From Escherichia coli (GTDB taxonomy: Bacteria > Pseudomonadota > Gammaproteobacteria > Enterobacterales > Enterobacteriaceae), in the NCBI RefSeq assembly GCF_003334335.1, contig NZ_QOWQ01000071.1: DNA of 7,669 nt, one strand, 5' to 3'. The notes beneath the pieces were generated by a model, which searched no databases, was not told the DNA's origin, and saw only the letters and a list, made by a program, of their open reading frames with translations. Numbering within the stretch: the stretch's first letter is position 1; each line of letters begins with the position of its first letter. Shown here piece by piece: positions 1,381-2,568 of this stretch. A program made the position numbers and the translations under genes.

Positions 1381-2568
1381 CCTTTTCTGGCGTATTCGTC
1401 ATTCCATTCGTATCCCCGGTACCGGATGTTTATATCGTACAGTGCCGGTGCTGGCATGCTTTCCTGCAGGTCTGCACCGGTTTAACAAACAAAACTTAAC
1501 AGAGTCTGAAGGAGTAGTATTCCGTGCAAATAACCGAAGCGTTACTTTCAGAGCCGGGAGATATCTGGCGTTTTGTTCAGCAGGCGGTGGACCACTGGCC
1601 GCGTCTGCTGGCAGTCCACTTCACGCGTCATTCGACCAGAGTAAATATTGATGATTACTAGATTCGTGTATTTTATCAGGCATTTTACTTGCGAATAAAT
1701 CCCCTTGCTATCCAGCGAAACCACACAGGTAGCTATTACCATATGTGGTAATACACTAGTTACAGGAAAAATATGCAAGTTCCGCAATACGTTGTGTGTT
1801 GCTCCTTAGCCAGGATCTTTTCTTCCATGCGAGATATGACAACAATTTTGAGGAAGGATGTTCGTAACTGGTAGAGTTACTACAACAAGCATGGGAGGCT
1901 CTGACTCTGACAGACATTGTACTGTGGAATGTTGTTACAGGTTGGGGCGGCAACCGTGCCAGGAGACCATGAGCCGTTCACGGCATTAAAGGCCACACTT
2001 CAGTCGTTTACATTCCCTATGGTGGCAGGCATCTTCCATTAAGGCGTCAGAGCGTTACCAACGTTATGTTGTCATGGCTCATCTTTCATAGTCGATGCTT
2101 ATCTGGTGGCTGAAACTAGCCGCAGATAAAGAGTGTGAAGTTGATACCATGGAGTGGAGTGACGTGCAGGCAGGAGATTCGCTCTATGCAGGGTTGTGAG
2201 ATGAATTCAAACCGGCTGGCAGCGCCAGTGATATTCGAAGATTCGTCCGGTTGTTACCCAGTATGCATTAAAAACCCAGACATTATGGACAATATAACGG
2301 CTTCTACAACAAGGAAGTGCCTGTTTACCATCCGGGTGTAATGACTCACCTTTGTGGGCTTTTGCCCGTCGCGCTCTTAACGTTGAAGACATTCTCTGCC
2401 TGCCGATTCAGGACTGCGACAAAAGCCATATCTGGCTACTGGTCAAGGATGACCAGCGTCTGGAGTAGGTGATAAGCCAAATAGATAAGCTGGAATATGT
2501 GGTGAAAGTGCAACGTAATCAGTCCAATCCGACGATGTTTAACAAGATTGTGGTGTTTTTTCAGTAAG

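Follow-up and report, generated by a model that had tools for sequence, protein, structure and literature searches.

YagK and YfjJ are proteins of the Escherichia coli K-12 cryptic prophages CP4-6 and CP4-57, and the family built on their C-terminal domain, PF11726, was formerly named Inovirus_Gp2. Validated small proteins usually have an open frame that is conserved among related strains. Members of another family, PF27752, are part of the backbone that is conserved in genomic and pathogenicity islands of E. coli, where they recur after an AlpA-like HTH gene and together with YagK/YfjJ genes; the names given to them by RefSeq are 'UCP030791 family putative phage-derived protein', 'YagK/YfjJ domain-containing' and 'inovirus Gp2 family'. 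The deoxyribose-utilisation (deoK) operon has been described on pheV-type pathogenicity islands (PMC7545054, PMC6455142), and the same two papers report that this module helps in colonising the gut. The window analysed here is a stretch of 7,669 nucleotides from an E. coli contig (NZ_QOWQ01000071.1 of assembly GCF_003334335.1). It holds a gene set that matches the described deoK operon and, at lower coordinates, a GTG-initiated ORF of 45 codons. An earlier note on this DNA had proposed that the ORF could be a real small protein, the stump of a gene truncated at an island junction, or chance. Our data indicate that it is very probably a non-functional relic, namely the opening 45 codons of a dead gene copy for a PF27752 protein of 170-182 amino acids, and we infer that any peptide made from it would lack function.

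Set beside the intact PF27752 family, the stump shares the GTG start and the Shine-Dalgarno sequence, has residues 1-34 identical to the member in strain 3CM, shows homology to residues 1-128 that carries on through its lesions, and lies in the island neighbourhood of intact members; unlike them it is open for 45 codons only and is followed by three nonsense codons and a frameshift. The YagK/YfjJ C-terminal domain proteins are distant kin of the intact PF27752 family, and the genes of both sit together in island backbones adjoining the AlpA-like HTH gene, but the close intact homologues fall below the Pfam, NCBIfam and PHROG thresholds and the stump below those of NCBIfam and PHROG. As with other short pseudogene fragments that pass as 'hypothetical protein', RefSeq calls the stump a CDS while flagging its garD' and ACT-domain neighbours as pseudogenes; it differs from such fragments in being a chimera, made where an intact copy crossed over with a decayed one, and in nothing else substantial. 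Validated E. coli small proteins of less than 50 amino acids are comparable in size, Shine-Dalgarno quality and start codon, whereas the open length of the stump's frame varies from allele to allele (22, 24 or 45 codons).

The ORF starts at GTG 1524-1526, ends at TAG 1659-1661 and encodes the peptide MQITEALLSEPGDIWRFVQQAVDHWPRLLAVHFTRHSTRVNIDDY; it is already known to RefSeq, which lists the identical ORF of 138 nt as a 'hypothetical protein' (WP_001411495.1). What the earlier note had observed is partly confirmed: the GAAGGAG motif is present where it was placed (Table 1), the GTG follows it after 9 nt, and the frame and the peptide quoted are exact. The ORF had also been described as antisense to the 5' region of garD, which does not hold, because GarD homology ends at 1343 and the RefSeq annotation of the garD remnant at 1374, and the ORF, which begins at 1524, overlaps no garD. 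It lies 150-180 nt past the truncated end of this remnant, in divergent orientation.

Table 1. Positions of the features discussed, in the window unless a retrieved locus (L006, L014) is named
Feature	Position	Strand	Evidence or remark
garD-like 'UxaA family hydrolase' pseudogene	207..1374	-	RefSeq on identical locus; tblastn with K-12 GarD
Shine-Dalgarno sequence GAAGGAG	1508..1514	+	Same GAAGGAG before the 170-codon genes of 3CM and NC101
45-codon ORF, chimeric N-terminal stump	1524..1661	+	ORF list; RefSeq CDS; tblastn to Esc29 protein
Recognisable pseudogene, PF27752 / 'UCP030791' / YagK-YfjJ-related	1524..1906	+	Aligns to residues 1-128 of 170-182
Crossover interval, 13 nt common to both parental types	1614..1626	.	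Window compared with 3CM and PYO4/O104:H4
Premature stop TAG, codon 46; CAG (Gln) in intact genes	1659..1661	+	DNA alignments, tblastn
Interval with 1-nt deletion near 1735, frame +3 to +2	1734..1744	+	Alignment gap, tblastn frame change
Second in-frame stop TAG; TGG (Trp) of LRWL motif in intact genes	1757..1759	+	tblastn, VVIH-stop-LQEKY against VVLRWLREQY
Third in-frame stop TAA; CAA (Gln) in intact genes	1865..1867	+	tblastn, EEGCS-stop-LVELL against DEQCSQVVDLL; alignment
Deoxyribose-utilisation operon, deoQKPX type	2569-6946	DeoR-type repressor on -	RefSeq, NCBIfam
Intact 170-codon PF27752 gene, NC101	L006:2544-3056		Retrieved locus
Intact 170-codon PF27752 gene, 3CM	L014:1501-2013		Retrieved locus

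Part of the evidence for our reading is homology. A sensitive DNA search with positions 1480-1700 matched thousands of E. coli loci, several of which are named 'UCP030791 family putative phage-derived protein' or 'YagK/YfjJ domain-containing protein'. The homologous gene of Esc29 has 182 codons and a GTG start, and its protein begins VQITEALISEPGDIRRFIQHAVDHWPRLLAVHF. Using this 182-aa protein as a tblastn query against the window we found two collinear segments with a joint E of 7e-30: residues 1-70 correspond to 1524-1733 in frame +3, straight through the TAG at codon 46, and residues 75-128 to 1745-1906 in frame +2, across two further stops. The family residues from about 129 on are not recognisable in the window. 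Residues 19-34 of the stump contain the family motif QQAVDH(W/Y)PRL-A-HFT. Intact members have 169-182 codons, and the uninterrupted frame of about 170-182 codons that they possess is broken here by stops at 1659, 1757 and 1865 and by the frameshift at about 1735. With three nonsense codons and a 1-nt deletion in it, the sequence is a multiply disrupted pseudogene, and the 45-codon ORF is therefore its front end. The homologue search that the earlier note had proposed as a check thus returned intact relatives of 170-182 aa, and the homology extends past the stop of the ORF.

The same junction also occurs with the gene intact. In 3CM and NC101 the garD' junction is as in the window and is followed by an intact family gene of 170 codons; what stands ahead of the junction is an annotated agaR in 3CM and a frameshifted DeoR-family pseudogene in NC101. 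Over the 30 nt upstream of the start, 3CM agrees with the window throughout and NC101 departs from it at a single position, and both have GAAGGAG and GTG. Because these signals precede the intact 3CM and NC101 genes, the Shine-Dalgarno sequence and start codon of the stump are inherited from a real gene. Truncation by the island junction was considered and rejected: nothing is missing at the 5' end, and strains with the intact gene have the junction too. By alignment it is the stop at codon 46, and not a cut at the island junction, that ends the frame. Of the earlier proposal of an N-terminal stump truncated at the junction, then, the stump stands and the junction cut does not, its place being taken by a nonsense TAG against CAG, so that the interpretation offered there appears partly supported by these comparisons. 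Since the stump is the remnant front end of a broken island gene of about 170 amino acids, its ribosome-binding site is inherited and a small-protein gene is very unlikely. It is an ordinary pseudogene relic which current annotation lists as a hypothetical protein.

The two ends of the stump have different affinities. Over 1424-1626 the window differs from 3CM at 1 of 203 nt (position 1456), and beyond 1626 there are 169 differences within the next 377 nt. Compared with the deoK-linked alleles of PYO4 and O104:H4 there are many differences up to 1613 and none in the 388 nt of 1614-2001. As the match to 3CM lasts up to 1626 and that to PYO4/O104:H4 begins at 1614, the crossover falls within 1614-1626. 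Codons 1-34 are identical to those of the intact 3CM protein, and codons 35-45 with the TAG are those of the decayed deoK-linked allele; aligned in this way, the window allele is shown to have the make-up of a recombinant chimera. In the sequence of events that we propose, the copy beside the deoQKPX deoxyribose operon would already have decayed through the change of CAG to TAG at codon 46, the 1-nt deletion and the two further nonsense codons. Intragenic homologous recombination, crossing over in 1614-1626, would then have given this decayed body the intact 5' end of a 3CM-like sister copy located at the agaR-garD' junction. With the donated 5' end open, the frame would run on into the old TAG, which would make the ORF 45 codons long. 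The direction of this event is the one that parsimony suggests.

At least four 5' contexts adjoin the decayed 3' body, namely agaR-garD', CPBP-hypothetical, acuR-adh' or IS66, and YagK/YfjJ genes, and at least two of the crossovers fall within the gene. One decayed body in this many contexts, with crossovers inside the gene itself, means that the repeated gene has served as a substrate for homologous recombination. The mosaic thereby illustrates how an island backbone gene can be a crossover site that links different flanks to the deoK module.

Conservation of the frame, the other check that had been proposed, gave the opposite of what a small-protein gene usually shows. We counted complete genomes among 5426 by their best match at 99% identity or more, so that the counts rest on identity and not on full coverage of every genome, and assigned 722 to the PYO4/O104:H4 allele, 286 to the window-type allele, 183 to the allele of AHB18, A37 and Nissle 1917, and 105 to the GPEC102 allele. 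The first of these is open for 22 codons and ends in a +2-nt frameshift, and the third is open for 24 codons, with TGG changed to TGA at codon 25. The window-type allele, a chimera with a 3CM-like 5' end, is open for 45 codons, as is the GPEC102 allele, an independent chimera with an S115-like 5' end and a crossover near codon 38. From 722 and 183 genomes against 286 and 105 it follows that about 70% of the classified loci are broken at codon 22-25, and both 45-codon forms are as long as they are because a fresh 5' end meets the same old TAG. As judged from these alignments, the 45-codon frame is shown not to be conserved among alleles that carry the same decayed body. The deoK-linked downstream segment, 1900-2345, is present in about 1531 complete genomes.

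The exact 45-aa peptide is found on at least 1000 contigs and in 286 of the 5426 complete genomes, a spread that clonal and island inheritance would lead one to expect and that does not tell these apart from selection. Comparison at the protein level gave seven variants of the 45-aa protein, including a common G12R, which is itself on at least 1000 contigs. In E118 and BroCaecum-55 this change is GGA to AGA at 1557. Gly12, the residue that it alters, is invariant in all seven close intact homologues compared, and we count G12R as a probable sign of relaxed constraint on the stump. E118 and BroCaecum-55 (L015, L016) also have an IS3-family insertion in the pseudogene body, at the equivalent of window position ~1873, about 210 nt downstream of the stump, so that the G12R stump and this insertion are found together in both. 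The 24-codon fragment of AHB18 (L002:4036-4110) bears the RefSeq name 'UCP030791 family putative phage-derived protein'.

The parent family itself is well represented. A search of 5.8 billion proteins gave 333 relatives and, among the matches listed, most have 170-182 aa and all have PF27752. Cluster representatives, searched exhaustively, included full-length relatives of ~150-250 aa at 22-33% identity, the closest, P0154, at 51%, and many fragments as well; with so many database representatives being fragments, the family evidently decays often. Copies occupy up to 6-7 places per genome. The best conserved block in the alignment of distant relatives, LQQAVDHYPRLAAFxFTL, lies within the stump. 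In an hhalign comparison the PF27752 family matched YagK_YfjJ_C with a probability of 88% and an E of 2.9e-6 over 98 columns, starting from the motif inside the stump, and 4 of 21 family members matched PF11726 at E<=0.001, which marks PF27752 as a distant relative of YagK_YfjJ_C. The relation to PF11726 is at the family level only, the intact Esc29 and NC101 proteins leaving PF11726 unmatched in a Pfam search; the Esc29 protein had no Pfam match at all because the library searched was one without PF27752. Neither the 45-aa stump nor the close intact homologues matched a meaningful family in NCBIfam or PHROGs, the family profile found no match among PDB sequences, and a literature search for 'UCP030791' found no paper.

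AlphaFold2, given the alignment of these relatives, models the intact NC101 protein as a single compact alpha/beta domain (pLDDT 90.7, pTM 0.86) of six strands and five helices: E2-8, H11-24, E27-36, H44-66, E77-82, E88-96, H97-100, H109-127, E132-142, H148-158 and E163-169. Measured against this model of the intact protein, the stump would hold beta1-alpha1-beta2 only (E2-8, H11-24, E27-36); it lacks a complete alpha/beta domain, having the first three elements and a diverged stretch of 11 residues at its end. A reading of the intact homologues as mis-annotated non-coding DNA is contradicted by the distant homologues and by the confident fold. Foldseek with this model found nothing in the PDB at E<=0.001. 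Its best matches, MoaC-like and other alpha/beta sandwiches with TM 0.2-0.4, are too weak for a fold assignment, and the Rep nickase domains of parvoviruses and AAV came up among these weak matches only, so that no assignment was made to them either.

An ORF of this kind could in principle be an accidental open frame in a non-coding spacer at the island junction, its SD-like sequence fortuitous. The region does hold about as many long ORFs as chance predicts, with 7 of at least 45 codons observed in 1344-2568 against 6.3 expected from first-order Markov random sequences, and ~16% of such random 1.2-kb sequences contain an ORF of this length with an SD-like pentamer. Length and Shine-Dalgarno sequence alone are therefore not exceptional, and it is homology, not statistics, that lifts this ORF above chance: its frame, start and Shine-Dalgarno sequence are collinear with intact genes for 170-182 aa, residues 1-34 are those of the 3CM protein, and the similarity runs on beyond its stop. 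We give the accidental frame next to no chance, and the option of chance left open by the earlier note is already refuted by the alignments to intact proteins. A genuine small-protein gene, for example one whose truncated peptide interferes with the intact family paralogues of the genome, is a different matter. A strong Shine-Dalgarno sequence at optimal spacing, an intact GTG, the presence of the most conserved motif of the family, the recurrence of the exact peptide on so many contigs and the several copies that a genome may hold would all suit it, and with the initiation signals intact the 45-aa peptide may be translated. But no sign of a function was seen, descent accounts for the Shine-Dalgarno sequence, a consensus promoter was not found, most loci with the same decayed body are broken at codon 22-25, and of the two 45-codon versions each is a chimera of its own, with a length that depends on nothing but the old TAG common to both. 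The common G12R strikes a conserved residue and, in the AlphaFold2 model, the stump amounts to about a quarter of one compact domain. With sister alleles open for just 22 or 24 codons, the real small protein suggested earlier is very unlikely. That the peptide is made and that its beta-alpha-beta fragment acts on intact PF27752 paralogues, as a dominant negative for instance, we hold to be barely conceivable; if it were true, recombination would have made a new small regulatory protein and not a dead stump.

The stretch might also matter as non-coding DNA, be it a transcribed leader, a small RNA or a recombination anchor conserved for the shuffling of island modules, and the varied 5' contexts of the decayed body and the crossovers within the gene could be read in this way. 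We consider this highly improbable, since a role as recombination substrate is a passive result of repetition and not a selected function. Rfam, searched at a permissive threshold over 1200-2700, gave no match, and a simple consensus scan of 1250-2600, which cannot prove that transcription is absent, found no sigma-70 consensus promoter. The single terminator-like hairpin, a weak one at 1553-1569 inside the ORF, is no more than shuffled sequence yields. In a survey of the small RNAs of PAI-I AL862 (PMC3326304), deoK, deoQ and garD go unmentioned in the main text. A search for repeats found a 21-nt direct repeat whose two copies are 86% identical, one at the garD' end (1357-1377, ACCATTATGAGGAAGGTTGTT) and one inside the pseudogene (1842-1862, ACAATTTTGAGGAAGGATGTT), and otherwise a single 14-nt inverted repeat; both repeats are probably due to chance.

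That the 45-codon ORF is the relic of a dead gene has a lesson for annotation: where island DNA shows a short open frame with a start codon and a strong Shine-Dalgarno sequence, all of these may be inherited as the front end of a dead gene. Such stumps remain in annotation as 'hypothetical protein', and one 24-codon fragment even bears the family name. The stump matters little in itself and is of use as a clean example for annotation and for island evolution.

The DNA around the stump has its own history of decay. K-12 GarD matches the window in tblastn with residues 73-522 only, on the minus strand from 1343 to 213; the first 72 codons of garD are missing from the window, and the garD-like pseudogene has an internal gap of 73 codons and two in-frame stops. 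It directly follows the 3' end of agaR (1-144), which is 97.6% identical to K-12, and the prlF-yhaV toxin-antitoxin pair that lies between agaR and garD in K-12 is absent from this copy of the border. In effect, the island holds at positions 1-1374 another copy of the chromosomal aga-gar border, and a decayed one. In the composition profile GC falls, as expected, from 57-59% in the garD' remnant to 42-49% in island DNA. Many complete E. coli chromosomes match positions 1364-2568 at 100% identity. In CFSAN061761 the order is agaR, the garD-like pseudogene, the 138-nt ORF, an ACT-domain (acetolactate synthase small subunit) pseudogene and a DeoR-family regulator, followed by genes annotated rbsK, fucP and aldose 1-epimerase family.

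In the window the ACT-domain pseudogene (2341-2567, plus strand) is frameshifted, has internal stops and borders directly on the 3' end of the gene for the DeoR-family regulator; it accompanies the deoK module in ~1500 complete genomes. Within the deoxyribose operon, NCBIfam supports the DeoR-type repressor, the ribokinase-family kinase and the fucP-type permease, and the aldose-1-epimerase-family protein has its name from RefSeq and is without an NCBIfam match. Near the end of the window, at 7321-7590 on the plus strand, lies what is left of the N-terminal part of an orfA transposase of the IS3 family (90 aa; transpos_IS3 in NCBIfam at E 1.3e-12), whose frame loses family sequence near 7590, which suggests another truncation or insertion at the window end.
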